DNA from: Escherichia coli
Lineage (GTDB): Bacteria; Pseudomonadota; Gammaproteobacteria; Enterobacterales; Enterobacteriaceae
DNA length: 64,000 bases
Assembly: GCF_050920415.1 (NCBI RefSeq)
Contig: NZ_CP169309.1
Direction: 5' to 3' (one strand)
Positions 236 to 57,519 of the stretch are shown piece after piece. How positions within the stretch are numbered: the stretch's first letter is position 1; every line of letters begins with the position of its first letter. A program made the translations under genes and the position numbers. The notes under the pieces are model-generated. The model did no database searches and had not been told where the DNA came from. It worked only from the letters and a program-made list of their open reading frames with translations.

Positions 236-1735
236 ATGCTAAATTTATTTGTTGGCCTTGATATATACACAGGGCTTTTGTTATTACTTGCTCTGGCATT
301 TGTGTTGTTCTACGAAGCAATCAATGGTTTTCATGACACGGCGAATGCGGTGGCAACCGTTATTTATACTCGTGCCATGCAGCCACAGCTTGCCGTGGTG
401 ATGGCGGCATTTTTTAACTTTTTTGGCGTATTGCTAGGCGGACTTAGCGTTGCCTATGCCATTGTCCATATGTTGCCAACCGATTTGTTGCTGAATATGG
501 GGTCAACTCACGGCCTGGCGATGGTCTTTTCCATGCTGCTGGCGGCGATTATCTGGAACCTGGGAACGTGGTTCTTTGGTTTACCGGCCTCCAGTTCGCA
601 TACCTTGATTGGTGCGATTATCGGCATCGGTTTAACCAACGCGCTTTTAACCGGCTCATCGGTGATGGATGCGTTAAACCTGCGTGAAGTGACCAAAATT
701 TTCTCCTCGCTGATTGTTTCCCCTATCGTCGGCCTGGTCATTGCGGGAGGCCTGATATTCCTGCTGCGCCGCTACTGGAGCGGGACGAAAAAGCGTGACC
801 GTATTCACCGCATTCCGGAAGATCGCAAAAAGAAAAAAGGCAAACGTAAGCCACCATTCTGGACGCGTATTGCGCTGATTGTTTCCGCTGCGGGCGTGGC
901 GTTTTCGCACGGCGCGAACGACGGGCAGAAAGGGATCGGACTGGTGATGCTGGTACTGGTGGGGATTGCTCCTGCTGGTTTCGTCGTCAATATGAATGCG
1001 TCCGGCTATGAAATTACCCGTACCCGCGATGCCGTCACCAACTTTGAACACTATCTGCAACAGCATCCTGAACTGCCGCAGAAGTTGATTGCGATGGAAC
1101 CTCCATTGCCTGCGGCATCGACTGATGGCACGCAAGTAACGGAGTTTCATTGTCATCCGGCAAATACCTTTGATGCGATTGCGCGCGTTAAAACGATGTT
1201 GCCAGGTAATATGGAAAGCTACGAGCCGTTAAGCGTGAGTCAGCGCAGCCAGCTGCGCCGCATTATGCTGTGCATCTCTGATACCTCTGCGAAGCTGGCG
1301 AAACTGCCAGGCGTCAGTAAAGAAGATCAGAACCTGCTGAAAAAACTGCGCAGCGATATGTTAAGCACCATTGAGTACGCTCCGGTGTGGATCATCATGG
1401 CGGTAGCACTGGCGCTCGGCATTGGCACCATGATTGGCTGGCGTCGTGTAGCGATGACCATCGGTGAGAAGATTGGTAAGCGCGGCATGACGTATGCGCA
1501 AGGCATGGCGGCACAAATGACGGCGGCAGTGTCTATCGGCCTTGCCAGTTATATTGGGATGCCCGTCTCCACAACGCACGTCCTCTCGTCTGCGGTAGCA
1601 GGGACGATGGTGGTGGACGGCGGTGGGTTACAGCGTAAAACGGTAACCAGCATCCTGATGGCGTGGGTGTTTACTTTACCGGCGGCGATTTTTCTGTCTG
1701 GTGGGTTGTACTGGATAGCATTGCAGTTGATTTAA
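236..1735 (+). CDS. pitB: Low-affinity inorganic phosphate transporter, PiT family
   Basis: 499 aa ORF that aligns by eye along its length with E. coli PitA/PitB (N-terminus [26 protein letters not shown]-terminal [22 protein letters not shown]). It differs from PitA at many positions and sits next to yghT, so it is the pitB paralog. Confidence 0.9.
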
Positions 1736-1783: not shown

Positions 1784-2476
1784 CTAGTGATAACCACACG
1801 CGGTCATAAAATCCGTAATCGCTTTTTCTGCATCAACCAGCACCTTTTCCAGTGGCTGATTGGCGTCGATATCAACCAGTTGTGCACCACCAAAGGTTAA
1901 CTGTGGCGTTATGGCAATCTTTCTCGCCAGCGATTCCCGTTTATGGTCGGGTTTACGCGCGCAGGCAACTTCAAGGTCAACATTGAGTTTGATAACCAGA
2001 TCAGGCTTATGGCTCGCCATCCAGTGAAATGCTTTACGTTCCTGGCTTGCCAGCCATGAGACAAACCGGCCGCCTTCAACGTTAGGTGGGAACACCGTAC
2101 CATCGTAAGCGCCAGGAATTTGGTCCTGAGGATAACGATCGGTTAAGACAATCAGCCCGCGACGACGACAGGCGAGCATATGACGAAAGCGTAACAGTCG
2201 GCGGGCGACGAAAGCGGTGATCACCAGGGCCGGAACCGGACCCGGCAATTTTTTTGCCGTTTTCACTTCATTTTTTTCAATAGTCTTGTGCAGAGACTTT
2301 CCCATCAACGGTAATTTTGTCACTGCACGACCGACATTTCCGGCCTGTTTTCCTAAATGAACTCTTTCGGCAGCACCATATTTTTCGACAACGGTAATAA
2401 GATGTTCACACACCGTTGACTTGCCTGAACCATCGCTACCAATAACGGCAATTAATGGAGGTGTTATTGACTGCAT
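1784..2476 (-). CDS. yghT: P-loop NTPase, kinase-like (Walker A plus DRY motif); paralog of YghS and YghR
   Basis: 230 aa. Walker [14 protein letters not shown], then LTDRYPQD and ARKPDH motifs shared with the next two genes. No ABC signature (LSGGQ). The fold call (thymidylate/nucleoside kinase-like) is by motif only. Confidence 0.8.
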
Positions 2477-2556
2477 GAATATATCCTTAAATTTAAATAT
2501 CCATCCAAAATATTTATTTGGTTAATATGTTTTTATGAAAGCGTAATTCAGGTCAA

Positions 2557-2581
2557 TGTCACAATTAACCATTGTCACAAT
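2557..2581. promoter_or_regulatory. Direct repeat TGTCACAAT x2 in the divergent yghT/yghS promoter region, candidate operator
   Basis: TGTCACAAT at 2557-2565 and again at 2573-2581, 16 bp apart centre to centre, inside the 173 bp AT-rich divergent intergenic region. Confidence 0.3.
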
Positions 2582-2649
2582 AAGGTTGAACGGATATTCT
2601 GAGCACGGACCACGTAATATTCAATACATTATTTGCTGCCGGGTTTTTC

Positions 2650-3363
2650 GTGAATCAACGTAATATGTCAATAATTAATTCCACGCCAGTGCGTGTTATT
2701 GCCATTGTAGGATGTGATGGTTCAGGTAAATCGACCCTCACGGCAAGCCTGGTAAATGAACTGGCAGCAACAATGCCAACAGAACACATTTATCTCGGGC
2801 AATCGTCCGGGCGAATTGGCGAATGGATTTCACAGCTCCCTGTTATTGGCGCACCTTTTGGGCGTTATCTGCGAAGTAAAGCGGCACATGTGCACGAAAA
2901 GCCCTCCACACCGCCTGGCAATATTACTGCGCTGGTTATCTATCTGCTTTCCTGCTGGCGGGCGTATAAGTTTCGCAAAATGTTGTGTAAAAGCCAGCAA
3001 GGCTATCTGCTCATCACCGACCGCTACCCGCAGGTTGAAGTGCCGGGTTTTCGCTTTGATGGCCCGCAACTGGCAAAAAACACGGGCGGTAACGGCTGGA
3101 TAAAAATGTTAAGACAGCGCGAGCTCAAACTTTACCAATGGATGGCGTCTTATTTGCCCGTATTGTTGATTCGTCTTGGCATTGATGAACAAACCGCGTT
3201 TGCGCGTAAACCTGACCACCAACTGGCGGCGTTACAGGAAAAAATCGCTGTTACGCCGCAACTGACATTCAATGGTGCAAAGATCCTTGAACTGGATGGT
3301 CGGCAACCCGCCGATGAAATTCTGCAAGCGTCACTACGCGCAATTCACGCCGCGCTTTCCTGA
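2650..3363 (+). CDS. yghS: P-loop NTPase, kinase-like; paralog of YghT and YghR
   Basis: 237 aa. Walker A IAIVGCDGSGKST, ITDRYPQ, ARKPDHQLAALQEKIAVTPQLTF; collinear with YghT. Confidence 0.8.
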   Translation: MNQRNMSIINSTPVRVIAIVGCDGSGKSTLTASLVNELAATMPTEHIYLGQSSGRIGEWISQLPVIGAPFGRYLRSKAAHVHEKPSTPPGNITALVIYLLSCWRAYKFRKMLCKSQQGYLLITDRYPQVEVPGFRFDGPQLAKNTGGNGWIKMLRQRELKLYQWMASYLPVLLIRLGIDEQTAFARKPDHQLAALQEKIAVTPQLTFNGAKILELDGRQPADEILQASLRAIHAALS

Positions 3364-3393
3364 TCACCAAATGGATAGGGGATGATTTAACGA

Positions 3394-4152
3394 ATGGATG
3401 CACTACAAACACAAACTGTTAATAGTACAACCGCGCCGCAGCCCAACTACATTCCGGGGCTGATTGCGGTGGTCGGGTGTGATGGCACCGGTAAATCCAC
3501 ACTGACCACTGACCTGGTGAAATCGCTGCAACAACACTGGCAAACCGAGCGCCGCTATCTGGGGCTGCTCTCCGGCGAAGACGGCGACAAAATCAAACGG
3601 TTGCCGCTCGTTGGCGTCTGGCTGGAACGGCGACTGGCGGCCAAATCCTCGAAAACCCAAAGCATGAAAACCAAATCTCCGGCGCTATGGGCGGCGGTGA
3701 TTATGTACTGCTTCTCGCTGCGAAGAATGGCGAATCTACGCAAGGTTCAGCGACTGGCGCAAAGTGGCGTTCTGGTGGTCAGCGATCGCTTCCCGCAGGC
3801 TGAAATTTCGGGCTTTTATTATGACGGACCGGGGATTGGCATCGAGCGTGCGACCGGGAAAATCAGCATGTTTCTGGCCCAGCGCGAACGGCGTTTATAC
3901 CAAAAAATGGCGCAATACCGTCCTGAATTAATTATTCGTTTGGGGATTGATATTGATACTGCCATCTCCCGCAAGCCTGACCATGACTATGCCGAGCTGC
4001 AGGACAAAATCGGTGTCATGTCGACGATTGGCTATAACGGCACAAAAATTCTTGAGATTGATTCCAGAGCGCCCTACAGCGAAGTGCTGGAACAGGCACA
4101 GAAGGCGGTTTCTCTGGTTGCAATCGTTTCTGACCGCCGAAGTTTAACTTAA
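3394..4152 (+). CDS. yghR: P-loop NTPase, kinase-like; paralog of YghT and YghS
   Basis: 252 aa. Walker A IAVVGCDGTGKST, VSDRFPQ, SRKPDHDYAELQDKIG; third copy of the same fold. Confidence 0.8.
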   Translation: MDALQTQTVNSTTAPQPNYIPGLIAVVGCDGTGKSTLTTDLVKSLQQHWQTERRYLGLLSGEDGDKIKRLPLVGVWLERRLAAKSSKTQSMKTKSPALWAAVIMYCFSLRRMANLRKVQRLAQSGVLVVSDRFPQAEISGFYYDGPGIGIERATGKISMFLAQRERRLYQKMAQYRPELIIRLGIDIDTAISRKPDHDYAELQDKIGVMSTIGYNGTKILEIDSRAPYSEVLEQAQKAVSLVAIVSDRRSLT

Positions 4153-4197
4153 GGTTGGCGGGATACTTTTTATTATCAACGATAAGGTCAGGCTGAA

Positions 4198-5547
4198 TTG
4201 GCGGGGTTTAACATCAAACATTGGTTTGCAGATGGCGCGTTTCGCACCATTATTCGCAATAGCGCCTGGTTAGGCTCCAGTAATGTCGTGAGCGCTTTGC
4301 TGGGTCTGTTGGCGCTCTCGTGTGCCGGTAAAGGGATGACGCCCGCCATGTTTGGCGTACTGGTGATTGTGCAATCGTACGCCAAGTCGATCAGCGATTT
4401 TATTAAGTTTCAGACATGGCAGCTGGTGGTTCAGTACGGAACGCCAGCCTTGACCAATAATAATCCGCAGCAATTTCGCAATGTCGTCTCATTTTCCTTC
4501 TCGTTGGATATCGTCAGCGGCGCGGTGGCGATTGTCGGCGGCATTGCCTTACTCCCTTTTCTTTCCCATTCATTAGGTCTGGATGACCAAAGCTTTTGGC
4601 TGGCAGCGCTGTATTGCACGCTCATTCCTTCAATGGCTTCCTCCACACCGACCGGCATTCTGCGTGCAGTAGATCGCTTCGATTTGATTGCTGTACAGCA
4701 GGCGACGAAACCTTTTCTGCGCGCAGCGGGGAGCGTCGTAGCCTGGTATTTTGATTTTGGTTTTGCGGGTTTTGTTATTGCCTGGTACGCATCGAATCTG
4801 GTTGGCGGCACCATGTACTGGTGGTTTGCCGCGCGCGAATTACGCCGCAGAAATATCCATAACGCCTTCAAATTGAATCTGTTTGAGTCTGCCCGACACA
4901 TTAAAGGCGCGTGGAGTTTTGTCTGGTCAACCAACATTGCCCACTCCATCTGGTCGGCACGTAACTCGTGCAGCACAGTGTTGGTGGGGATCGTGTTAGG
5001 ACCCGCTGCCGCCGGGTTATTTAAAATCGCCATGACATTCTTCGATGCCGCCGGAACGCCAGCGGGTTTACTGGGCAAAAGTTTTTACCCAGAGGTGATG
5101 CGTTTAGATCCGCGTACCACCAGACCGTGGTTGTTAGGCGTGAAGTCCGGTTTACTGGCGGGCGGAATCGGTATTCTGGTGGCGCTCGCGGTGTTGATCG
5201 TCGGCAAGCCGCTCATTTCGCTGGTGTTTGGCGTTAAGTATCTCGAAGCGTATGACCTGATTCAGGTGATGCTTGGCGCAATTGTGATTTCGATGCTGGG
5301 CTTCCCACAGGAGTCATTGCTATTGATGGCGGGAAAACAGCGCGCTTTTCTCGTGGCGCAAACCATCGCCTCAATCGGCTACATCGTATTGCTGTTCATG
5401 TTCTGTCATCTGTTTGGCGTGCTGGGGGCTGCATTTGCTTACTTCGGTGGGCAATGTCTGGATGTGGTGCTCTCGTTAATTCCAACCTTAAAGGCATTTT
5501 TTCAGCGCCATTCCTTGCTTTATAACGCAGCCGGAGAGAAATCCTGA
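4198..5547 (+). CDS. yghQ: Multi-pass inner-membrane protein, MOP/polysaccharide-biosynthesis (Wzx/MurJ-like) flippase family
   Basis: 449 aa, highly hydrophobic throughout with many predicted TM segments. The track start is a TTG; the true start may be the internal ATG at about 4333. The stop overlaps the next ORF's start (TGATG). Confidence 0.7.
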   Translation: MAGFNIKHWFADGAFRTIIRNSAWLGSSNVVSALLGLLALSCAGKGMTPAMFGVLVIVQSYAKSISDFIKFQTWQLVVQYGTPALTNNNPQQFRNVVSFSFSLDIVSGAVAIVGGIALLPFLSHSLGLDDQSFWLAALYCTLIPSMASSTPTGILRAVDRFDLIAVQQATKPFLRAAGSVVAWYFDFGFAGFVIAWYASNLVGGTMYWWFAARELRRRNIHNAFKLNLFESARHIKGAWSFVWSTNIAHSIWSARNSCSTVLVGIVLGPAAAGLFKIAMTFFDAAGTPAGLLGKSFYPEVMRLDPRTTRPWLLGVKSGLLAGGIGILVALAVLIVGKPLISLVFGVKYLEAYDLIQVMLGAIVISMLGFPQESLLLMAGKQRAFLVAQTIASIGYIVLLFMFCHLFGVLGAAFAYFGGQCLDVVLSLIPTLKAFFQRHSLLYNAAGEKS

Positions 5548-5993
5548 TGATGAGAAAATATTTCCCGCTTGAGGCGAGCGAGCGTCTATTTATTGCAGTT
5601 GAAGAAGATGATGTCGTTGATGCGCAGGTCAGTTTACCGCCGACTATCGCAACAGGTTGTACCACCGAAATCATTCATGATAATTACGCGTTATGCCTGC
5701 AATTCTGGCTGAATGGCGTTGATCGTCAGGAATTACTGCGTTTAATCCACAAACAAGCCAAAGGCGAGGGGCTTACGGCTGACGAGCGTAAACAGTTTAA
5801 ATATATGCGGGCGCGTTATAAGCATCTACGTTTTGCCCAACGGTTGTATTTAAAAAAGCATCAGGCCGGATTTTTATTTGGCAAAACGACCGTTTTTCTT
5901 GGACGTTTTCAGGACGGCTTTCGTAACGGTAAGAAAAATATTGTGTCGTTTTACGGCAACCTTTTACGGATTTATTTAAGCTCTCCGGTCTAG
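5547..5993 (+). CDS. Hypothetical protein, no recognisable motif
   Basis: 148 aa ORF whose ATG overlaps the yghQ stop (translational coupling), same strand as neighbours. Basic, soluble-looking. Confidence 0.5.
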   Translation: MMRKYFPLEASERLFIAVEEDDVVDAQVSLPPTIATGCTTEIIHDNYALCLQFWLNGVDRQELLRLIHKQAKGEGLTADERKQFKYMRARYKHLRFAQRLYLKKHQAGFLFGKTTVFLGRFQDGFRNGKKNIVSFYGNLLRIYLSSPV

Positions 5994-6371
5994 TTGTTGG
6001 TGAACTATTCATTACGCCATAGCCAGTTAGAAAGCGTAAGCGGTTTTATTGCCTATCGGCAAAAGCAAATGCACCTCCTGAAAGAGATTATTGCCAAACC
6101 ACGGCTAACTGGCAGGGAATTTCATGATGTACGAAAAATAATCAGCCAGCAGGTTTCTTATTACGACACCCTAAGATCGCTTGATCCTGAAAATAAAGAA
6201 GCGTTACAGATTTCCCGCTTCCTCGCCGCCATTAATGGCCTGATGGGGGATAAACACGACGACATGGTGGCGGATGATATGGAAAACCGCCAGTCGTATG
6301 ATGCACCGATGGCGCTGGATAGCGATATTCGTCAGCGCTTAGAACTGCTGATTTCGCGTTTTCCGCTATAA
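5994..6371 (+). CDS. Hypothetical protein, start uncertain
   Basis: 125 aa ORF immediately after the previous stop. The track start is TTG; the first in-frame ATG is at about 6069. No motif recognised. Confidence 0.35.
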   Translation: MLVNYSLRHSQLESVSGFIAYRQKQMHLLKEIIAKPRLTGREFHDVRKIISQQVSYYDTLRSLDPENKEALQISRFLAAINGLMGDKHDDMVADDMENRQSYDAPMALDSDIRQRLELLISRFPL

Positions 6372-6379
6372 CCGGAGCA

Positions 6380-6943
6380 ATGATGTCATCTCGTTTGATT
6401 ATTGCGCTGATTATCATGCTCTTAGCCCCGGGTGTGCAGGCGCACAATTTCGTCACTGGTAAAACGGTTACCCCTGTTTATATCCAGGAAGGCGGCGAGC
6501 TGCTTCTGAATAGCGACGACGAAATTCACTACCAAAAGTGGAACAGCACACAGCTGGCGGGAAAAGTCCGCATTATTCAGTATATCGCCGGGCGTAAGTC
6601 GGCGAAGAAAAAGAACTCACTGTTAATTAAAGCGGTTGAAGCGGCAAACTTTCCGCAGGATCGTTTTCAGCCCACCACCATTGTGAACACCGATGATGCC
6701 ATCTTTGGTACTGGCTATTTTGTCGTTGGCAAAATCGAAAAAAATAAACGCCGCTATCCGTGGGCGCAATTCGTTATTGACGGCAATGGACAGGGACGCG
6801 TTGTCTGGCGGTTGCCGGAGCAGAGTTCAACCATTCTGGTGCTGAATAAAGCCGGGCAAATTCAGTGGGCAAAGGACGGCAGCCTGACGCCGGAAGAGGT
6901 AGATCATGTCATTGCGCTGGCGCAGAAGCTGATCAATGAATAA
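6380..6943 (+). CDS. Secreted/periplasmic protein with cleavable signal peptide, function unknown
   Basis: 187 aa. N-terminus MMSSRLIIALIIMLLAPGVQA|HN is a typical Sec signal peptide. It lies directly upstream of the LptF/LptG-like pair. Any YtfJ-like or LptA/LptC-like assignment is unverified. Confidence 0.6.
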   Translation: MMSSRLIIALIIMLLAPGVQAHNFVTGKTVTPVYIQEGGELLLNSDDEIHYQKWNSTQLAGKVRIIQYIAGRKSAKKKNSLLIKAVEAANFPQDRFQPTTIVNTDDAIFGTGYFVVGKIEKNKRRYPWAQFVIDGNGQGRVVWRLPEQSSTILVLNKAGQIQWAKDGSLTPEEVDHVIALAQKLINE

Positions 6944-6973
6944 AAAACTCAAAGGATTGAGGGCGTTAGTGAG

Positions 6974-8044
6974 ATGAAGCTGGTTGAACACTACATCATG
7001 CGTGGTACGCGCCGTCTGGTGCTGATTATCGTCGGTTTTCTGATCTTTATTTTCGCCAGCTACTCCGCACAGCGTTATCTGACCGAAGCGGCAAATGGGA
7101 CATTAGCTCTTGATGTTGTGCTGGATATTGTTTTCTACAAGGTGCTGATTGCACTGGAGATGTTGTTACCTGTTGGACTGTATGTGTCAGTTGGCGTGAC
7201 GCTAGGGCAGATGTATACCGACTCGGAAATTACCGCTATTTCTGCGGCGGGGGGGAGTCCGGGACGCTTGTACAAAGCCGTTCTTTATCTGGCGATACCG
7301 CTAAGTATTTTTGTCACCCTTCTGTCGATGTATGGTCGTCCGTGGGCTTATGCGCAGATTTATCAACTGGAGCAACAGTCGCAGTCGGAGCTGGATGTTC
7401 GCCAGTTGCGGGCAAAGAAATTTAACACTAACGATAACGGACGAATGATCCTTTCGCAGACGGTTGATCAGGATAATAATCGCCTGACTGACGTGCTGAT
7501 TTATACTTCTACTGCCAATCGAACCCGTATTTTCCGCGCCCGTTCGGTTGATGTAGTTGACCCATCACCCGAGAAACCGACCGTTATGTTGCATAACGGG
7601 ACCGCCTATCTTCTCGATCATCAGGGGCGTGACGACAACGAACAGATCTACCGTAATCTGCAATTGCATCTGAATCCGCTGGATCAAAGCCCTAACGTCA
7701 AACGCAAAGCAAAATCGGTCACGGAGCTGGCGCGCTCCGCCTTTCCTGCCGATCATGCCGAACTGCAATGGCGACAAAGCCGTGGCCTGACAGCATTGTT
7801 GATGGCGCTGCTGGCCATTTCATTAAGTCGGGTAAAACCGCGGCAAGGGCGATTTTCAACGTTATTGCCACTGACGTTGCTGTTTGTTGCCATTTTTTAT
7901 GGCGGCGACGTCTGCCGTACGCTGGTGGCTAACGGCGCGATTCCCCTCATTCCTGGTTTGTGGTTAGTACCCGGACTCATGCTAATGGGCCTGCTGATGC
8001 TGGTCGCACGCGACTTCTCTTTGCTGCAGAAATTTTCCCGATGA
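6974..8044 (+). CDS. LptF/LptG-family (YjgP/YjgQ) permease, paralog 1
   Basis: 356 aa. N-terminal TM helix, then a large periplasmic domain and C-terminal TM bundle, matching the LptF/LptG topology. Stop overlaps the next start (ATGA). Confidence 0.8.
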   Translation: MKLVEHYIMRGTRRLVLIIVGFLIFIFASYSAQRYLTEAANGTLALDVVLDIVFYKVLIALEMLLPVGLYVSVGVTLGQMYTDSEITAISAAGGSPGRLYKAVLYLAIPLSIFVTLLSMYGRPWAYAQIYQLEQQSQSELDVRQLRAKKFNTNDNGRMILSQTVDQDNNRLTDVLIYTSTANRTRIFRARSVDVVDPSPEKPTVMLHNGTAYLLDHQGRDDNEQIYRNLQLHLNPLDQSPNVKRKAKSVTELARSAFPADHAELQWRQSRGLTALLMALLAISLSRVKPRQGRFSTLLPLTLLFVAIFYGGDVCRTLVANGAIPLIPGLWLVPGLMLMGLLMLVARDFSLLQKFSR

Positions 8045-9120
8045 ATGTTTTCAGTCGCTATTTAATTCGTCATCTCTTTCTCGGTTTTGCCGCCGCCGCA
8101 GGGCTATTGCTGCCGCTCTTTACCACCTTCAACCTGATTAACGAACTGGATGATGTCAGCCCGGGTGGTTATCGCTGGACTCAGGCGGTGCTGGTGGTGC
8201 TGATGACCTTACCGCGCACACTGGTCGAACTTTCGCCGTTTATCGCCTTATTGGGAGGGATTGTCGGCCTGGGGCAGTTATCGAAAAACAGTGAGCTTAC
8301 CGCCATTCGCAGCACGGGGTTTTCTATCTTCCGTATTGCACTGGTGGCGCTGGTTGCCGGGATATTGTGGACTGTTTCATTAGGCACGATAGATGAGTGG
8401 GTGGCGTCGCCATTGCAGCAACAGGCGCTGCAAATCAAATCGACTGCCACTGCGTTGGGGGAGGACGATGACATTACCGGCAATATGCTGTGGGCCAGGC
8501 GTGGTAATGAATTTGTGACGGTGAAATCGCTGAACGAGCAGGGCCAGCCGGTGGGCGTGGAGATATTTCATTACCGCGACGATCTCTCGCTCGAATCCTA
8601 CATTTATGCACGCAGTGCCACCATTGAAGACGACAAAACGTGGATCCTGCATGGTGTGAATCATAAAAAATGGCTGAATGGCAAAGAAACGCTGGAAACA
8701 TCTGATAATCTTGCCTGGCAATCGGCCTTCACCAGTATGAATCTTGAAGAGTTATCGATGCCGGGAAATACTTTTTCTGTCCGTCAACTTAATCATTACA
8801 TCCATTATTTGCAGGAAACCGGGCAACCCAGCAGCGAATACCGCTTTGCACTGTGGGAAAAACTGGGACAACCCATCTTGACCCTTGCGATGATTTTGCT
8901 GGCTGTGCCGTTTACCTTTAGTGCCCCGCGTTCGCCTGGGATGGGTAGCCGTCTCGCTGTAGGCGTCATCGTGGGGTTACTCACCTGGAGCAGCTATCAA
9001 ATCATGGTCAATCTGGGATTGCTATTTGCGTTGAGCGCACCTGTTACCGCGCTCGGTTTACCGATAGCGTTTATGCTGGTGGCGTTGAGCCTGGTGTATT
9101 GGTATGACAGTCAACATTAA
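8041..9120 (+). CDS. LptF/LptG-family (YjgP/YjgQ) permease, paralog 2
   Basis: Start taken at the ATG at 8041 (MNVFSRYLIRHLFLGF...), not the longer track ORF from 7960. LGQLSKNSELTAIRSTGFS parallels LptG LGMLAQRSELVVMQASGFT. Periplasmic middle domain and C-terminal TMs. Confidence 0.8.
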   Translation: MNVFSRYLIRHLFLGFAAAAGLLLPLFTTFNLINELDDVSPGGYRWTQAVLVVLMTLPRTLVELSPFIALLGGIVGLGQLSKNSELTAIRSTGFSIFRIALVALVAGILWTVSLGTIDEWVASPLQQQALQIKSTATALGEDDDITGNMLWARRGNEFVTVKSLNEQGQPVGVEIFHYRDDLSLESYIYARSATIEDDKTWILHGVNHKKWLNGKETLETSDNLAWQSAFTSMNLEELSMPGNTFSVRQLNHYIHYLQETGQPSSEYRFALWEKLGQPILTLAMILLAVPFTFSAPRSPGMGSRLAVGVIVGLLTWSSYQIMVNLGLLFALSAPVTALGLPIAFMLVALSLVYWYDSQH

Positions 9121-9121
9121 A

Positions 9122-9148
9122 CCCGCCGTGGCGCAGCACCACAGCGGG
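9122..9148. terminator. Imperfect hairpin at the convergent junction of the two opposing operons
   Basis: CCCGCCGTGG ... CCACAGCGGG with one mismatch, in the 34 bp between the permease stop (9120) and the synthase stop (9155-9157). Confidence 0.3.
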
Positions 9149-9154
9149 CTCACA

Positions 9155-10327
9155 TTACTGCTTCAGAGTAGCAAATGCCTGAATGATGGCATCGATTTGC
9201 TCACGAGTGTGGGCAGCGTTTACGCTACAGCGCAGCAGCGTGATGCCTGCAGGCGCGGCAGGTGGCAGGATAAGATTCACATAAACGCCCAGCGAAATAA
9301 GCTCGCGCCAGATGCGTAAACCTTCCTCTTTCGAACCGATTATTACTGGCACTACCGGGCTAATATGTGAACTTAACTCGTAACCCAGTTTTTGCAGACC
9401 GTCATACAGATGGCTGGCGTTATCCATCAGCTTTTGCCGCAACTCTGGTTGTGAGGCAATGGTTCTTAACGACGAGCGCACGGTCGCAATGCAGGACGGA
9501 GAAGGAGAGGCGGTAAAAATATACGGGCGGCTGCCGTAGCGCAGCACTTCCATCGCTTCCGAACCGACAGCAAAACCGCCAATCGAGGCCAGACTTTTAC
9601 TGAAAGTACCAACGATAATATCCACATCATCTTCAACGCCAACGGCTTCAGCCAGTCCGCGCCCCGTTGCGCCTAACACGCCAAACGAATGCGCTTCATC
9701 GACAATCAAATAACCACCGAGACGACGTTTGATATCAACAATTTCCGCCAGCGGCGCAACGTCACCGAGCATACTGTAGATGCCTTCAACGATGATAATC
9801 GCCTCTTTTGCCCGTTCACCGAGGCGAACCATGCGCCGTTCCAGATCTTTAGCATCGTTATGGCGGAAACGAATAATTTCCGCTCCACCGAGAGAACAGG
9901 CGTCATAAATACTGGCGTGGCTATCGGCATCCAGTAACACCACGGCGTTATGGTCGGCAAGTGCGCTGATGACACCTAAATTAGCGGTATAACCGGTTGA
10001 AAAAACGATAGCGGTAGGGCGATTGAAAAACTCGGCAATCTCTTTCTCTAACGCCAGATGTGGCGCATAGCTGCCATTAGCCATACGAGAACCGGTAGTG
10101 CCGGTGCCTTGTGCCGCTAATGCTGCCTGACCTTCGGTGATGGCATCATGATTGAAAGTTAAACCGAGATAATTATTAGTCCCGGCCAGAATCACTTTTT
10201 TATTGCCGATACGGCCTTCAGTGGCGGAGTACACTTCATCAATACAGGTACCAAACGGCGTTAATCCGTTGTCACTAAATTGCAGTCGCTCGCCAGCAAG
10301 GCGCGCATATTTATCGTATAGCCCCAT
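9155..10327 (-). CDS. PLP-dependent alpha-oxoamine synthase (serine palmitoyltransferase / KBL / BioF family)
   Basis: 390 aa. Motifs DEAHSFGVLGATGRG and GTFSKSLASIGGF (PLP lysine) are hallmarks of alpha-oxoamine synthases. Start overlaps the ACP stop by 1 nt. Confidence 0.85.
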   Translation of the reverse strand: MGLYDKYARLAGERLQFSDNGLTPFGTCIDEVYSATEGRIGNKKVILAGTNNYLGLTFNHDAITEGQAALAAQGTGTTGSRMANGSYAPHLALEKEIAEFFNRPTAIVFSTGYTANLGVISALADHNAVVLLDADSHASIYDACSLGGAEIIRFRHNDAKDLERRMVRLGERAKEAIIIVEGIYSMLGDVAPLAEIVDIKRRLGGYLIVDEAHSFGVLGATGRGLAEAVGVEDDVDIIVGTFSKSLASIGGFAVGSEAMEVLRYGSRPYIFTASPSPSCIATVRSSLRTIASQPELRQKLMDNASHLYDGLQKLGYELSSHISPVVPVIIGSKEEGLRIWRELISLGVYVNLILPPAAPAGITLLRCSVNAAHTREQIDAIIQAFATLKQ

Positions 10328-10575
10328 TATTTATTCTCCAGCCATGGAAGTAGAGTTTCCATTAATTGCGCAGGGGTTTTGACATCCAGCAGAATATTAA
10401 TAGGAATGGAAATATCGAATCTGTCTTCCAGCATCATTAAGAGATCCATCACTTTGATCGACTCCAGGCCAAGATCGTTGACGAGATCGCTGTCGGGCTT
10501 AATTTCCACACCGTTTTCGACCAAATCCTGTAAACAGGAAAGGATGTAATCCATTACTATTTCACGATTTACCAT
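10327..10575 (-). CDS. Acyl carrier protein (phosphopantetheine-binding)
   Basis: 82 aa acidic protein. DLGLESIKVMDL is a candidate 4'-phosphopantetheine attachment site. Lies between the synthase and the reductase. Confidence 0.75.
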   Translation of the reverse strand: MVNREIVMDYILSCLQDLVENGVEIKPDSDLVNDLGLESIKVMDLLMMLEDRFDISIPINILLDVKTPAQLMETLLPWLENK

Positions 10576-10606
10576 AGAAACGTTAACACACCTTTAAACA
10601 AGACAA

Positions 10607-11521
10607 TCAAAATAGCCCGCTGCGTAATGCGTGTTCCAGGCTAATCCCGGGAAACCAATTAATATCTTCAGAAATACGGTTATTACTTGCTGACCAGTCG
10701 GCGTGGGTTAATTCACGGATTTTCGAGCGGGTCAGCATAGGTTCTTTACCTGCCAGGCGACTCAACGCGGTACTGATATCCGCAAGGCAGGTGAGTACCG
10801 ACAGAGGAATACCAACCATTCGAACGGAACCGCAACGGGCGTCGGCGGCAAGTTGCTGTACGCGTTGCCAGTCATAGCCGCCGGCGACGCCATCGCATAA
10901 TTCATAGGTTTGCGTTTGTACAGTTTCGGCGCTTAACCACTGCCCCACGGCTTGCGCGAAATCGGTGACGTGCAGGAAAGAGAGCTGTGTATCTGGCGCA
11001 CCAAGTCGTGGCAGCAGGCCGCGCAGCATCCAGCCAAACAGCGGTTTTAACTCTTTATCGCCGGGACCATACACGGCTGTCGGGCGAAAAATGCCCAGCG
11101 TAATTTCGTCAGCCATTGCGGTCAGTCGTTGTTCGGCGACGTGTTTGGAATTTGCGTACCAGGAGAGTTCGGGATGGCGCGCCGCCAGCGAAGAGATAAA
11201 CAGAAAACGTTGGCAAAAGCCGCTCTCTTTTGCCGCTTGCATCAGGCGCAGGCTGCCGTCAACGTTACAGCGGGTAAAAATCTCTTCTTTGTGTCCGCGC
11301 ACTTGCCCGGCGCAATGGACCACCGCGCTGGCTCCGGCAACCAGTTCGCTAAGCGAATGTGTATCTTCCAGCGAACCGCGCACCCAGATGAGATTATCAT
11401 TGACGTGAGCGCGGGCAGTACGCGTCAATGCGCGAACGTGAAAGCCGCGGGCGAGCAGGTTATCGATAATATATTTACCGATAAACCCGGTAGCGCCCGT
11501 CACCGCGACAGTTTGATTCAT
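10607..11521 (-). CDS. NAD(P)-dependent epimerase/dehydratase-family reductase (extended SDR)
   Basis: 304 aa. N-terminal Rossmann motif VAVTGATGFIG and catalytic YANSK (YxxxK). Start overlaps the ligase stop (ATGA). Confidence 0.8.
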   Translation of the reverse strand: MNQTVAVTGATGFIGKYIIDNLLARGFHVRALTRTARAHVNDNLIWVRGSLEDTHSLSELVAGASAVVHCAGQVRGHKEEIFTRCNVDGSLRLMQAAKESGFCQRFLFISSLAARHPELSWYANSKHVAEQRLTAMADEITLGIFRPTAVYGPGDKELKPLFGWMLRGLLPRLGAPDTQLSFLHVTDFAQAVGQWLSAETVQTQTYELCDGVAGGYDWQRVQQLAADARCGSVRMVGIPLSVLTCLADISTALSRLAGKEPMLTRSKIRELTHADWSASNNRISEDINWFPGISLEHALRSGLF

Positions 11522-13236
11522 GCCATGGATTCCTGCACATGAAGGCTTGCAGCATAACGTTTTTTCGCTTCCGCACGGGCAGGCTTGCCGGAGGACGTTC
11601 GGGGAATACTGTGGGGCGGCAACAGATCGATAGCCGCTGTTACGCCAAATTCGCTTTGGATCCGTGCTGCCAGTGCGTGGATAAGCTGCCCACGACGTTC
11701 TTCGTCGCTGATCCTACACTGGATCTGCAAAATGATTTTTTCCTGGGCGGTAACAAAAGCAATCGCATCGCCAGAATGAATTTCCGGTTCCTGTTCCGCA
11801 ATATATTCAATATCCTGCGGCCAGATATTACGGCCACGAATAATAATCAGATCTTTAATGCGCCCGGTGACATACAGATAACCATCCAGCAGATAACCGA
11901 GGTCGCCGGTATCTAACCAGCCCGTCGCGGCAATCTCGTCTTGCGAAACCTGGTCGCCAAAGTAACCGCTCATCAGGCTGGGGCCGGAGATGCAAATATG
12001 GCCTACCACACGTTCCGCGACCGGCATACCTGCTTCATTGCGGATTTCAATGCCATGTTCCGGCAACGCTTTACCGCAGTTGACGAAAGTCGATACGGCG
12101 CGTGTTTCAGCACCCGGCGCGACGGCTTTGCCCTGATATTCAAGGATGTCGCGATCCACTTCGTTAACCACAACCCCGGAGGCTTCATCAGAGAAGCTGA
12201 CAGCCAGCGCATTTTCTGCCAGTCCGTAGCACGGCATGAAAGTTTTATCGTCAAAGTTAACCTGACGGAAACATTCAGCAAATTGGTGGAGTTGTTCTGC
12301 GGAGATGGGTTCTGCGCCAATACCAGCGACGCGCCAGCACGAGAGATCCAGTTCAGCGAGATCTTTTTCATTCACGCGGCGCTGACACAATTCATAGCCA
12401 AACGGCGGCGCGACGGAAACTGTGCCACGATTTTTACTGATCAATTTAAGCCATTGCAGCGGACGCATGGCAAAATCCTGAGTGCGCAAATAATCTACTG
12501 AGAGCTGCGTGGCGACGGGGGTCAGGAGAAAGCCGACCAGTCCCATATCATGGTAGAAAGGCAGCCAGGAGACGCAGCGGTCGCCAGGGCGTAATTTAAT
12601 GCCATCGTGGCTTATAGCACGTAGATTAGCCATCACTTCGCGATGGGTGATAATGACGCCACGGGGAAAACGGGTGCTGCCGGAGGTGTACTGGAGGTAG
12701 GCGATATCGTTCGGAACTGGACGCTGGAGTACAACATCGGCTTCCGGTAATGCCTTAAACCAGGCGTGGCTTAAAACATGTAATTCGGGGTTGTTATGCG
12801 TAGCAGCATTGACCAGTGGCAACCACTCATCACCAGTGATAATGGCTGCGGGCTGGCAACTAGCCAGTAAACCTTGCAGTTTAGCGCTCCAGGAATCCCG
12901 CTGACCGACGCCCATTGGAATCGCTAACGGGACGGCGACTAAGCCGGCATACTGGCAGGCAAAAAAAGCCTCTACAAACCCGCTACTCGTTTCGGCAATC
13001 AGCGCCACGCGATCGCCTTTTTTCAGATTTAGTGATAACAACCGCTTCGCACCAGCTTCGGCACACGCTTTTAACGTCTGATATTCCAGTTGATCTTCAA
13101 GTTGGCAACGTCTGTCATAAAAATTCATTCCGGCGCTACTCAGAGCGGCGTAGTCCAAAGCATCAACCAGCGTTGGAAAATCGGCATAGCGCATAGGTAG
13201 GGAATGCGTAAAGATGTTATTAGACATATACACCAC
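11518..13236 (-). CDS. Fatty-acyl-AMP ligase / acyl-ACP synthetase (adenylate-forming enzyme)
   Basis: 572 aa. AMP-binding motifs YTSGSTRFPRGV, DTGDLGY and GRIKDLIIIRGRNIWPQDIE. The exact start (Met1, Met4 or Met15) is uncertain. Confidence 0.85.
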   Translation of the reverse strand: MVYMSNNIFTHSLPMRYADFPTLVDALDYAALSSAGMNFYDRRCQLEDQLEYQTLKACAEAGAKRLLSLNLKKGDRVALIAETSSGFVEAFFACQYAGLVAVPLAIPMGVGQRDSWSAKLQGLLASCQPAAIITGDEWLPLVNAATHNNPELHVLSHAWFKALPEADVVLQRPVPNDIAYLQYTSGSTRFPRGVIITHREVMANLRAISHDGIKLRPGDRCVSWLPFYHDMGLVGFLLTPVATQLSVDYLRTQDFAMRPLQWLKLISKNRGTVSVAPPFGYELCQRRVNEKDLAELDLSCWRVAGIGAEPISAEQLHQFAECFRQVNFDDKTFMPCYGLAENALAVSFSDEASGVVVNEVDRDILEYQGKAVAPGAETRAVSTFVNCGKALPEHGIEIRNEAGMPVAERVVGHICISGPSLMSGYFGDQVSQDEIAATGWLDTGDLGYLLDGYLYVTGRIKDLIIIRGRNIWPQDIEYIAEQEPEIHSGDAIAFVTAQEKIILQIQCRISDEERRGQLIHALAARIQSEFGVTAAIDLLPPHSIPRTSSGKPARAEAKKRYAASLHVQESMA

Positions 13237-13598
13237 GAAAAAAATTGGATATCAGAAATAAAATGACAATAATGCGGTGGATTATATAGGCATAAAAGAT
13301 AAATGAGATAGTATTTTCATCGGTGCGATATTGAACATTGATTTAAATAATAGGTTTGGCTTTGTTGTTTTTATTGTGAATTATATTTAATTTATGAATA
13401 TATTAAGAAGAAGCCTTGTTTGGTTGCCTTAAATCGACAAAAGGCATTGAGGCGCTTCTGTGTAGTCTCTGACCTTATCTTAATTATTAATAAATACTAT
13501 TTATTCTTTGTTTGTATTCTTTGGGTTGATTATTAAGATGCCGTTCGTTGCTGTTGCAATCTGTTTGTCACCGTTAATTATTTGTTATCCACAGAGAT
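13237..13598. promoter_or_regulatory. AT-rich divergent promoter region between the ligase operon and yghO
   Basis: 362 bp non-coding stretch with long A/T tracts (for example TTTAAATAATAGG, TTATATTTAATTTATGAATATATTAAG). No ORF. Candidate nucleoid-protein (H-NS-like) silenced promoter. Confidence 0.4.
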
Positions 13599-14741
13599 AT
13601 GGAATGCGATCTGCTGATGATTAAAATTGAAAAAGTAATTAATAAAAATGACCTTAAGGCATTTATCGCTTTTCCGTCATCACTTTATCCCGATGATCCA
13701 AACTGGATACCCCCTTTGTTCATTGAACGCAGCGAGCATTTGTCGGCGAAGAATCCGGGGACGGACCATATTATCTGGCAGGCGTGGGTAGCAAAAAAAG
13801 CGGGGCAGATAGTCGGGCGGATTACCGCGCAAATCGATACCTTGCACCGCGAGCGTTACGGTGACGATACCGGTCATTTCGGCATGATTGACGCCATTGA
13901 TGATCCGCAGGTTTTTGCCGCGTTGTTTGGCGCAGCGGAAGCGTGGTTGAAGTCACAAGGTGCAAGTAAGATCAGCGGGCCTTTCAGCCTGAATATCAAT
14001 CAGGAAAGCGGATTACTGATTGAAGGTTTCGACACTCCGCCCTGTGCGATGATGCCGCACGGTAAACCGTGGTATGCCGCGCATATTGAACAATTGGGTT
14101 ATCACAAAGGTATTGATTTACTGGCGTGGTGGATGCAACGAACCGATCTCACTTTCTCTCCGGCGCTAAAAAAACTGATGGATCAGGTGCGCAAAAAGGT
14201 GACCATTCGCTGCATCAAGCGCCAGCGGTTTGCCGAAGAGATGCTGATCCTGCGTGAGATTTTCAACTCTGGCTGGCAGCACAACTGGGGATTTGTGCCG
14301 TTTACCGAACATGAATTCGCTACCATGGGCGATCAACTAAAGTATCTGGTACCGGACGATATGATCTACGTCGCCGAGATTGATTCTGCTCCCTGCGCGT
14401 TTATAGTCGGCTTGCCGAACATCAACGAGGCGATTGCCGATCTGAACGGAGCGCTCTTTCCCTTCGGCTGGGCAAAATTGCTGTGGCGCTTAAAAGTCAG
14501 CGGTGTGCGAACTGCGCGAGTGCCGCTGATGGGCGTGCGTGACGAGTATCAGTTCAGCCGCATCGGCCCGGTGATTGCGCTGTTATTGATTGAAGCCTTA
14601 CGCGATCCGTTTGCTCGCCGGAAGATCGATGCGCTGGAAATGTCATGGATCCTCGAAACCAATACAGGCATGAATAACATGCTGGAACGCATTGGAGCGG
14701 AGCCGTACAAGCGTTACCGATTGTATGAAAAGCAGATTTGA
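13599..14741 (+). CDS. yghO: YghO-family protein, probably acyl-CoA N-acyltransferase fold (GNAT-like)
   Basis: 380 aa intact ORF. I recognise the name from its position next to glcC. The GNAT-like assignment is from memory of annotations, not from a motif I can point to. Confidence 0.65.
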   Translation: MECDLLMIKIEKVINKNDLKAFIAFPSSLYPDDPNWIPPLFIERSEHLSAKNPGTDHIIWQAWVAKKAGQIVGRITAQIDTLHRERYGDDTGHFGMIDAIDDPQVFAALFGAAEAWLKSQGASKISGPFSLNINQESGLLIEGFDTPPCAMMPHGKPWYAAHIEQLGYHKGIDLLAWWMQRTDLTFSPALKKLMDQVRKKVTIRCIKRQRFAEEMLILREIFNSGWQHNWGFVPFTEHEFATMGDQLKYLVPDDMIYVAEIDSAPCAFIVGLPNINEAIADLNGALFPFGWAKLLWRLKVSGVRTARVPLMGVRDEYQFSRIGPVIALLLIEALRDPFARRKIDALEMSWILETNTGMNNMLERIGAEPYKRYRLYEKQI

Positions 14742-56538: not shown

Positions 56539-57519
56539 ATGAATATGGAAGAAATTGTGGCCCTTAGTGTAAAGCATAATGTCTCGGATCTACACCTGTG
56601 CAGCGCCTGGCCCGCACGATGGCGTATTCGCGGGAGGATGGAAGCTGCGCCGTTTGATGCGCCGGACGTGGAAGAGCTACTACGGGAGTGGCTGGATGAC
56701 GATCAGCGGGCAATATTGCTGGAGAATGGTCAGTTAGATTTTGCTGTGTCGCTGGCGGAAAACCAGCGATTGCGCGGCAGTGCGTTCGCGCAACGGCAAG
56801 GTATTTCTCTGGCATTACGGCTGTTGCCTTCGCACTGCCCGCAGCTCGAACAGCTTGGCGCACCACCGGTATTGCCGGAATTACTCAAGAGCGAGAATGG
56901 CCTGATTCTGGTGACGGGGGCGACGGGGAGCGGCAAATCTACCACGCTGGCGGCGATGGTTGGCTATCTCAATCAACATGCCGATGCGCATATTCTGACG
57001 CTGGAAGATCCTGTGGAATATCTCTATGCCAGCCAGCGATGTTTGATCCAGCAGCGGGAGATTGGTTTGCACTGTATGACGTTCGCATCGGGGTTGCGGG
57101 CTGCATTGCGGGAAGATCCCGATGTGATATTGCTCGGAGAGCTGCGTGACAGCGAGACAATCCGTCTGGCGCTGACGGCGGCAGAAACCGGGCATCTGGT
57201 GCTGGCAACATTACATACGCGTGGTGCGGCGCAGGCAGTTGAGCGACTGGTGGATTCATTTCCGGCGCAGGAAAAAGATCCCGTGCGTAATCAACTGGCA
57301 GGTAGTTTACGGGCGGTGTTGTCACAAAAGCTGGAAGTGGATAAACAGGAAGGACGCGTGGCGCTGTTTGAATTGCTGATTAACACACCTGCGGTGGGGA
57401 ATTTGATTCGAGAAGGGAAAACCCACCAGTTACCGCATGTTATTCAAACCGGGCAGCAGGTGGGGATGATAACGTTTCAGCAGAGTTATCAGCTGCGGGT
57501 GGGGGAAGGGCGTTTGTAA
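56539..57519 (+). CDS. yggR: PilT-like type IV pilus retraction ATPase homolog
   Basis: Start at the ATG at 56539 (MNMEEIVALSVKHNVSDLHL), 326 aa. Walker A GATGSGKST. Confidence 0.9.
   Translation: MNMEEIVALSVKHNVSDLHLCSAWPARWRIRGRMEAAPFDAPDVEELLREWLDDDQRAILLENGQLDFAVSLAENQRLRGSAFAQRQGISLALRLLPSHCPQLEQLGAPPVLPELLKSENGLILVTGATGSGKSTTLAAMVGYLNQHADAHILTLEDPVEYLYASQRCLIQQREIGLHCMTFASGLRAALREDPDVILLGELRDSETIRLALTAAETGHLVLATLHTRGAAQAVERLVDSFPAQEKDPVRNQLAGSLRAVLSQKLEVDKQEGRVALFELLINTPAVGNLIREGKTHQLPHVIQTGQQVGMITFQQSYQLRVGEGRL

Follow-up and report, generated by a model that had tools for sequence, protein, structure and literature searches.

The nine-nucleotide direct repeat between the divergent genes yghT and yghS of Escherichia coli rather probably represents core promoter DNA, in which copy 2 would provide the –35 element of yghS and copy 1 would be a lineage-specific near-duplicate, possibly serving as a weak –35 element of yghT. 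According to this model, copy 2 would carry the hexamer TTGTCA of a sigma-70-type promoter with TATTCT as its –10 element 17 bp downstream, and the palindromic TGTCACA core would appear –35-like on both strands, i.e., as TTGTCA on the plus strand and as GTGACA or TTGTGA on the minus strand. Because of this palindromic core, the divergent yghT promoter may draw a weak –35 element from copy 1, which lies 16 bp further on the yghT side. The complete identity of the two copies (9/9) would have arisen in the E. coli lineage from an older and looser likeness (G-Y-CACAA-Y), and it is within the range of chance. With regard to regulation, H-NS-type silencing of the AT-rich spacer, relieved by SlyA, would be likelier than control by a factor specific for the 9-mer.

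Sequence, setting and statistics of the repeat

Throughout the text, the window refers to the whole stretch of 64 kb of E. coli chromosomal DNA that was analysed. Its sole exact copies of TGTCACAAT are located on the plus strand at 2557–2565 (copy 1, on the yghT side) and at 2573–2581 (copy 2, on the yghS side), with a gap of 7 bp between them. An earlier, sequence-only reading of this DNA had described two identical 9-mers 16 bp apart, which is right in coordinates and sequence, 16 bp being the start-to-start distance, and the string quoted there (AATGTCACAATTAACCATTGTCACAATAAGG) is what positions 2555–2585 read. If one mismatch is allowed, the repeat lengthens to 12 nt (CAaTGTCACAAT / CAtTGTCACAAT). 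Two further symmetries had not been part of that description. Together with the preceding A2571 and T2572, copy 2 forms an 11-nt palindrome (ATTGT-C-ACAAT), and the inner halves of both copies constitute an inverted repeat, ACAAT-N5-ATTGT (2561–2575), whose half-site centres are 10 bp apart. The palindromic nature of the core TGTCACA accounts for this inverted reading of the pair, and two outward-facing TTGT-type –35 boxes at a distance of 7 bp suffice to produce this arrangement.

Both copies are part of the divergent yghT/yghS spacer (2477–2649), which comprises 173 bp with 31% G+C as judged from open reading frames, RefSeq annotation and composition. A 261-bp query across the site matched 4692 of 5426 complete E. 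coli genomes, annotated with yghT and yghS, and the gene names used here were taken from the RefSeq annotation of these matching genomes; the remaining 734 of the 5426 are without the yghT|yghS spacer. To the left, yghT (1784–2476, minus strand) encodes a P-loop protein resembling dTMP kinase, the NCBIfam dTMP-kinase model matching solely far under its cutoff, and it is convergent with pitB (236–1735, plus strand), which has its own upstream region. To the right, the yghT paralog yghS (2650–3363, plus strand, GTG start) is followed by yghR (3394–4152, plus strand) and heads a same-strand gene run which extends to the LptF/G paralogs (2650–9120) and is putatively co-transcribed. The 44-nt segment containing the repeat is also present in K-12 at MG1655 3134018–3134061, where a window position x corresponds to MG1655 3136607 – x. 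That the repeat occupies the regulatory core between two divergent genes, as originally proposed, is correct, and the divergent yghT|yghS order is kept in every enterobacterial ortholog that was retrieved. The spacer is furthermore flanked by a 38-nt inverted repeat (2415–2452 / 2698–2735, 76% complementary), which was dismissed as a structural element, since it merely reflects that the N-terminal, P-loop-coding parts of the paralogs yghT and yghS point in opposite directions.

As a chance test, exact direct repeats of at least 9 nt within 30 bp were counted in dinucleotide-preserving shuffles. Such a repeat was present in 750 of 20,000 shuffles of the spacer (3.75%), and the whole window contains 12 pairs of this kind (10 distinct) versus 7.5 ± 3.4 in shuffles, so that several of them are bound to turn up in 64 kb. 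The TGTCACAAT repeat is statistically unremarkable and is by itself no evidence of function. Scaled from 0.67 per 64 kb, chance alone would give about 48 copies of the 9-mer in a whole genome. Within the window, ACAAT-N5-ATTGT has a single match at up to one mismatch, versus 2.7 expected.

Conservation of the spacer and predicted promoters

Orthologous spacers were gathered independently of the repeat by scanning for a YghS peptide pattern with one genome per species. Further orthologs were obtained by a protein search with contig look-ups in ten named Enterobacterales and by a metagenome scan, excluding E. coli, on the P-loop coding pattern of yghS, the matches of which were sorted by tblastn. 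YghS homologs of Sulfuritalea, Methylotenera and Halioglobus were set aside as uninformative for the spacer comparison, as they are found without the divergent yghT context. The final alignment comprised 12 non-redundant spacers from six clades (Escherichia, Hafnia, Citrobacter, Pseudocitrobacter, Shimwellia and Pluralibacter), and conservation was scored for each E. coli position as the number of the five other clades in agreement.

The mean score amounts to 2.88 of 5 clades for the whole spacer (2477–2649) and to 2.40 for its left part on the yghT side. It reaches 4.50 for TTGTCA (2572–2577) and 4.83 for TATTCT (2595–2600), and this pair of hexamers, starting at 2572 and 2595 with a spacing of 17 bp, holds conservation rank 1 of 144. 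Copy 1 has a mean of 3.11 over the full 9-mer (2557–2565), composed of 1.67 for its TGT (2557–2559) and 3.83 for CACAAT (2560–2565). As the score of this TGT is that low and the CAAT tail of copy 2 (2578–2581) only attains 2.75, the repeat unit is not the conserved unit. Ranked as nine-mers, copy 1 is found at position 68 and copy 2 at position 20 of 164, and the pair of 9-mers in the register proposed by the sequence-only reading ranks 28th of 148.

Among the orthologs compared, the exact repeat occurs solely in E. coli and in two cryptic Escherichia genomes. Copy 2 stays fixed while copy 1 drifts, and the six-clade alignment reveals no co-variation between them. In fact, CATTGTCACAA (2570–2580) is invariant in Escherichia, Hafnia and Citrobacter and is kept at 9 of 11 positions in Pseudocitrobacter and Shimwellia, and what is conserved at copy 2 across the six clades is CATTGTCAC(AA), i.e., the –35 hexamer TTGTCA with its flanks. 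Copy 1 reads TGCCACAAT in E. albertii, AGCCACAAT or AGCCACATT in Hafnia, i.e., AGCCACA(A/T)T, and ACGACAAT in Citrobacter, and it differs in Pseudocitrobacter, too. In Pluralibacter, both copies are lost and the –10 block is retained. The inverted repeat ACAAT-N5-ATTGT is kept in Escherichia and H. paralvei and becomes a perfect 6+6 version (GACAAT-N5-ATTGTC) in Citrobacter; 4 of 5 positions match in the other Hafnia and in Shimwellia, 3 of 5 in Pseudocitrobacter, and it is lost in Pluralibacter. Judged from this alignment, the exact repeat is young and lineage-specific, whereas CATTGTCAC(AA) and ATATTCT are old.

The same comparison bears on the idea that the pair is a remnant of a 16-bp tandem duplication (CAATGTCACAATTAAC / CATTGTCACAATAAGG) without any selected function, which we regard as very improbable. 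An identity of 12 out of 16 nt between the two units in E. coli speaks in its favour. However, Tandem Repeats Finder with a minimum score of 30 reports none, and the units of Hafnia are identical at only 9 of 16 positions, meaning that those of E. coli are more alike, which is the opposite of decay. The TGCCACAAT and AGCCACAAT versions of copy 1 in E. albertii and Hafnia, as opposed to TGTCACAAT in E. coli, likewise argue against such an origin.

Within E. coli, complete identity was counted in 4505 of 4684 genomes for the 44-nt repeat segment, compared with 4628 of 4680 for its right flank and 3959 of 4689 for its left flank; these counts are rough, as BLAST trims mismatched ends. On these figures, it is the entire yghS-proximal half of the spacer that is conserved within the species and not the repeat in particular.

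The two best conserved hexamers would constitute a promoter of the yghS operon, here termed P1. Its predicted –35 element TTGTCA (2572–2577, plus strand), located inside copy 2, agrees with TTGACA at 5 of 6 positions, and its predicted –10 element TATTCT (2595–2600, plus strand), part of the conserved block ATATTCTG, agrees with TATAAT at 4 of 6 positions, including A2 and T6. In a consensus scan, TTGTCA-17-TATTCT was the single promoter-like site in 2400–2750; such a match alone is no better than chance (1 found versus 1.4 expected), and the argument for a promoter therefore rests on conservation. In a simple weight-matrix scan with frequencies from published promoter compilations, 11 of the 12 closer orthologs had the same site as first or second match ahead of yghS, with Shimwellia featuring a version with a 16-bp spacer, TTGTCA-16-TATCCT. 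P1 thereby combines the characteristics of a sigma-70 promoter, namely a –35 and a –10 element, a spacer in the range of 16–18 bp and conservation of both hexamers and of their spacing. Transcription from P1 would, as inferred from the position of these elements, start near 2605–2608, about 45 nt upstream of the GTG of yghS, which in K-12 is MG1655 ~3133999–3134002 on the minus strand. No entry of a mapped transcription start for yghS or yghT was found in the Cappable-seq, SMRT-Cappable-seq and Kim 2012 supplements.

A second promoter of yghS might be located closer to the gene. Some 25 nt before the yghS start (window 2614–2626), most orthologs keep the block (A)TACAAT, and in Serratia, Rahnella and Erwinia TACAAT is the –10 element of the top-scoring promoter, preceded at 16–18 bp by TTGAAC, TTGATA or TTGAAG. 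This block may represent a second, ancestral yghS promoter (P2), for which TTCAAT (2620–2625, plus strand; TACAAT in most orthologs) would be a possible alternative –10 element in E. coli. Shimwellia additionally carries a perfect palindrome, GTCAC-GGCAC-GTGAC, between the –35 and –10 elements, about 90 to 76 nt upstream of the yghS start, which is a typical repressor position; a 4/5 version of it exists in Pluralibacter, and it is absent from E. coli.

Evidence for a promoter on the yghT side is weaker. A candidate –35 element, TTGTGA (2559–2564, minus strand), was read from the sequence inside copy 1 and is followed after 18 bp by a weak candidate –10 element, TTTCAT (2535–2540, minus strand), in a poorly conserved region; this combination is not among the top weight-matrix matches of E. 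coli. By eye, comparable weak arrangements are present in H. paralvei (TTGTGG-18-CATTAT) and Citrobacter (TTGTCG-16-TATATC). For the yghT side of Hafnia and Citrobacter, the preferred weight-matrix match combines GTGACA of copy 2 with a subsequent TATTTT or TAGTAT. Taken from these hexamers, copy 1 may play a role in yghT transcription as a weak –35 element.

The overall arrangement resembles back-to-back divergent sigma-70 promoters: TTGTCA and TATTCT, 17 bp apart, occupy the most conserved positions of a 173-bp spacer, and a second, outward-facing –35-like hexamer is found 7 bp away on the other strand. It deviates from such a system in the weakness and poor conservation of the promoter on the yghT side and in its –35 block, which comprises 11 nt instead of a hexamer. 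The conserved block at copy 2, CATTGTCACAA, thus exceeds what a –35 element occupies; the five nucleotides of this block that flank the hexamer do not vary in three clades whose adjacent promoter spacer is only about 45% identical (our own count from the alignment). These additional conserved positions may point to a further constraint, for instance a bound protein.

Candidate operators and regulators

An operator of a trans-acting regulator, placed over the –35 boxes of both divergent promoters and serving to repress or co-activate yghT and the yghS operon, is a possibility that we consider doubtful. It could be occupied by a dimer on ACAAT-N5-ATTGT or by two dimers on the two palindromic TGTCACA cores. 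In line with this option, the pair is placed centrally between the genes, on top of both candidate –35 boxes, the 11 conserved nucleotides of copy 2 are more than a hexamer requires, and Escherichia and H. paralvei have kept the inner inverted repeat unbroken, with a perfect 6+6 version in Citrobacter. The complete identity of the 44-nt segment in the large majority of E. coli genomes given above points in the same direction, and if P2, with its –10 element T(A/T)CAAT at 2620–2625, were used, both copies would come to lie at activator-type positions near –55 and –71.

Several observations stand against it. Repeated or palindromic half-sites at a sensible spacing are present, but copy 1 is not conserved as a duplicate of copy 2, no co-variation is visible, and Pluralibacter is without both elements, yet with the –10 block. 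Among E. coli genomes, the right flank surpasses the repeat segment in conservation, and the inverted repeat is to be expected anyway from two outward-facing TTGT-type –35 boxes. A two-copy operator shared by both arms, as suggested by the sequence-only reading, is not supported, and what that reading itself had named as refuting it largely applies: the exact repeat is not conserved, and solely copy 2 is well kept across the six clades. A narrower version, in which the palindromic CATTGTCACAA(T), joined in some lineages by an ACAAT 10 bp upstream, forms the candidate operator of a trans-acting regulator, appears unlikely to us; if true, this operator would switch the whole yghT / yghS-operon arm of the lipid cluster on or off.

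Further copies upstream of potentially co-regulated genes would be expected of an operator, and a search for them had been proposed together with the motif. In the 64-kb window and in the FAAL|yghO spacers of E. coli, Citrobacter and Serratia, none was found in a regulatory position: the 9-mer, the 11-mer palindrome and ACAAT-N5-ATTGT are absent from all other intergenic positions of the window. An exact TTGTCACAA at 57319–57327 lies inside an ORF of 351 amino acids and was discarded as a chance match. The FAAL|yghO spacer (13237–13598), the second promoter region of the cluster, shares a single 9-nt overlap, TCACAATAA, with the site. This overlap was rejected as a cluster-wide motif, since it is absent in Citrobacter, where the FAAL|yghO spacer has no CACAA, and in Serratia, where a single CACAA occurs in an unrelated context. 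The same E. coli spacer (30% G+C) contains a 9-nt direct repeat of its own, TATTCTTTG, at 13502 and 13515 (13502–13523).

Known binding sites were addressed by comparing 16 consensus sequences, i.e., those of 15 transcription factors and the DnaA box, with the site and with shuffles, and none of them fits the site better than shuffles, which further argues against an operator. These included the consensus sequences of CRP (TGTGA-N6-TCACA), FNR (TTGAT-N4-ATCAA) and Fur (GATAATGATAATCATTATC), whose best matches have 3/10, 3/10 and 8/19 mismatches and are equalled in 28%, 45% and 41% of shuffles, respectively, so that the earlier impression of a motif unrelated to these three regulators holds. 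PhoB, ArcA, OmpR, CpxR, PhoP, CusR, LexA, DnaA, SlyA and GlrR were dismissed for the same reason, as none of them fits better than shuffles. The Pho box, which was considered in view of the neighbouring pitB, consists of two CTGTCAY heptamers 11 bp apart. TTGTCAC resembles such a heptamer and overlaps the –35 position; however, the spacing here is 16 bp, and the best match to the full box has 7/18 mismatches, no better than shuffles. Separately, the consensus of the RcsAB box (TCAGAATATCCGTT) matches at 10 of 14 positions at 2589–2602 on the minus strand, over the conserved –10 block; this match is equalled in 10% of shuffles and constitutes a weak lead given the envelope-lipid gene content.

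Another resemblance concerns repressors of the GntR/FadR type, which presumably bind paired short palindromic operators over the promoter, e.g., TTGTA[G/C]TACAA in the case of DgoR. Here, two close 11-nt palindromes of the type TTGT-N-ACAA overlap the –35 region. Unlike in those operators, the second palindrome is not conserved; moreover, the FadR-type pattern TNGTNNNACNA has an inner N3, whereas an inner N1 is found here. The generic FadR-type pattern has 1 mismatch here, a fit that 41% of shuffles reach as well, and for the DgoR consensus there are 5 mismatches. No gene of the GntR type travels with the cluster: glcC, located just past yghO, adjoins it in E. coli alone and has its own spacer without such a site. 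GlcC was rejected as the binding protein, as the glcC|glcD spacer shares no k-mer with the motif and glcC is unlinked to the cluster in Citrobacter and Serratia.

The view that the cluster encodes no regulator, so that any binding protein would act in trans, has stood up to closer inspection. YghO (380 aa, 13599–14741) is listed as "putative DNA-binding transcriptional regulator" in the MG1655 record, and its orthologs flank the cluster in Serratia, Rahnella and Erwinia. Nevertheless, it was not retained as a credible cluster-encoded regulator, as neither Pfam, searched up to E ≤ 10, nor NCBIfam yields a match for the protein. The lack of a regulator gene accompanying the cluster in E. coli, Citrobacter and Serratia also weighs against the operator. 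In the literature searched, no specific regulator of yghS or yghT was found, and the matches listed for the strings TGTCACAAT, TTGTCACAA and ATTGTGACA came from unrelated eukaryotic or viral studies alone. A weak FlhDC genomic-SELEX peak (intensity 11) has been reported in the spacer, with its listed motif located elsewhere (PMC9962212).

An alternative option is that neither copy is recognised specifically, that this AT-rich spacer of mobile origin is silenced by H-NS and relieved by SlyA- or LeuO-type proteins, and that the repeat is incidental and copy 1 without function. Taken as a full account of the site, this seems rather improbable to us, despite a number of supporting observations. 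The spacer has a G+C content of only 31%, the repeat statistics are within chance, and yghS is contained in two H-NS regulon data sets and was upregulated 3.1-fold on SlyA overexpression (PMC5797941). The locus is patchy, as reflected by the 734 of 5426 E. coli genomes without it, and has homologs in Betaproteobacteria. In AT richness, patchy distribution, H-NS listing and SlyA response, the region thus resembles H-NS-silenced, SlyA-relieved promoters. It differs from them in that the SlyA consensus TTAGCAAGCTAA is not present at the site (5/12 mismatches), and binding of H-NS would be independent of the 9-mer. Such silencing leaves unexplained why CATTGTCAC and ATATTCT stand out so sharply by their conservation from diverged surroundings; this pattern needs a sequence-specific reader, most simply RNA polymerase. 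The silencing view is compatible with the core-promoter explanation and not opposed to it.

The lipid gene cluster behind the predicted promoter

In non-K-12 E. coli, yghT and yghS stand at the start of a complete gene cluster for lipid synthesis and export, which covers about 13 kb of the window (1784–14741). Besides the three P-loop paralogs yghT, yghS and yghR, the same-strand run from yghS includes a MOP flippase (4198–5547), and the cluster continues with a hypothetical gene of 274 aa (5547–6371), a YtfJ-family gene (6380–6943) and the LptF/LptG paralogs (6974–9120). The hypothetical gene contains an in-frame TAG at 5991–5993, where strain WB61 has TGG (Trp149), and it is probably a pseudogene in the present strain. 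Encoded on the other strand are a serine palmitoyltransferase (9155–10327; NCBIfam NF047599, 599.6 bits versus a cutoff of 500), an acyl carrier protein, an SDR reductase (10607–11521) and a fatty acyl-AMP ligase (FAAL, 11518–13236), after which yghO follows. From this gene content, the cluster looks like a sphingolipid-type pathway. No characterisation of it was found in the literature searched.

The identical gene set is present in Citrobacter (L060) and Serratia (L062), and the cluster is common to Escherichia, Hafnia, Citrobacter and relatives; in K-12, most of it has been lost, next to IS5. Some E. coli records feature a divergent YghS allele with only 72–75% identity, and YghS homologs with 46–58% identity are encoded in Methylotenera, Sulfuritalea and Halioglobus genomes. 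Judged from its distribution, the yghT/yghS locus looks horizontally mobile.

The analysis yields a promoter model for the yghS operon, together with MG1655 coordinates, in which the repeat most likely marks an ordinary, uncharacterised sigma-70 promoter. Of greater interest than the motif are the genes under its control, and knowledge of when they are expressed would help to find the lipid that is made.
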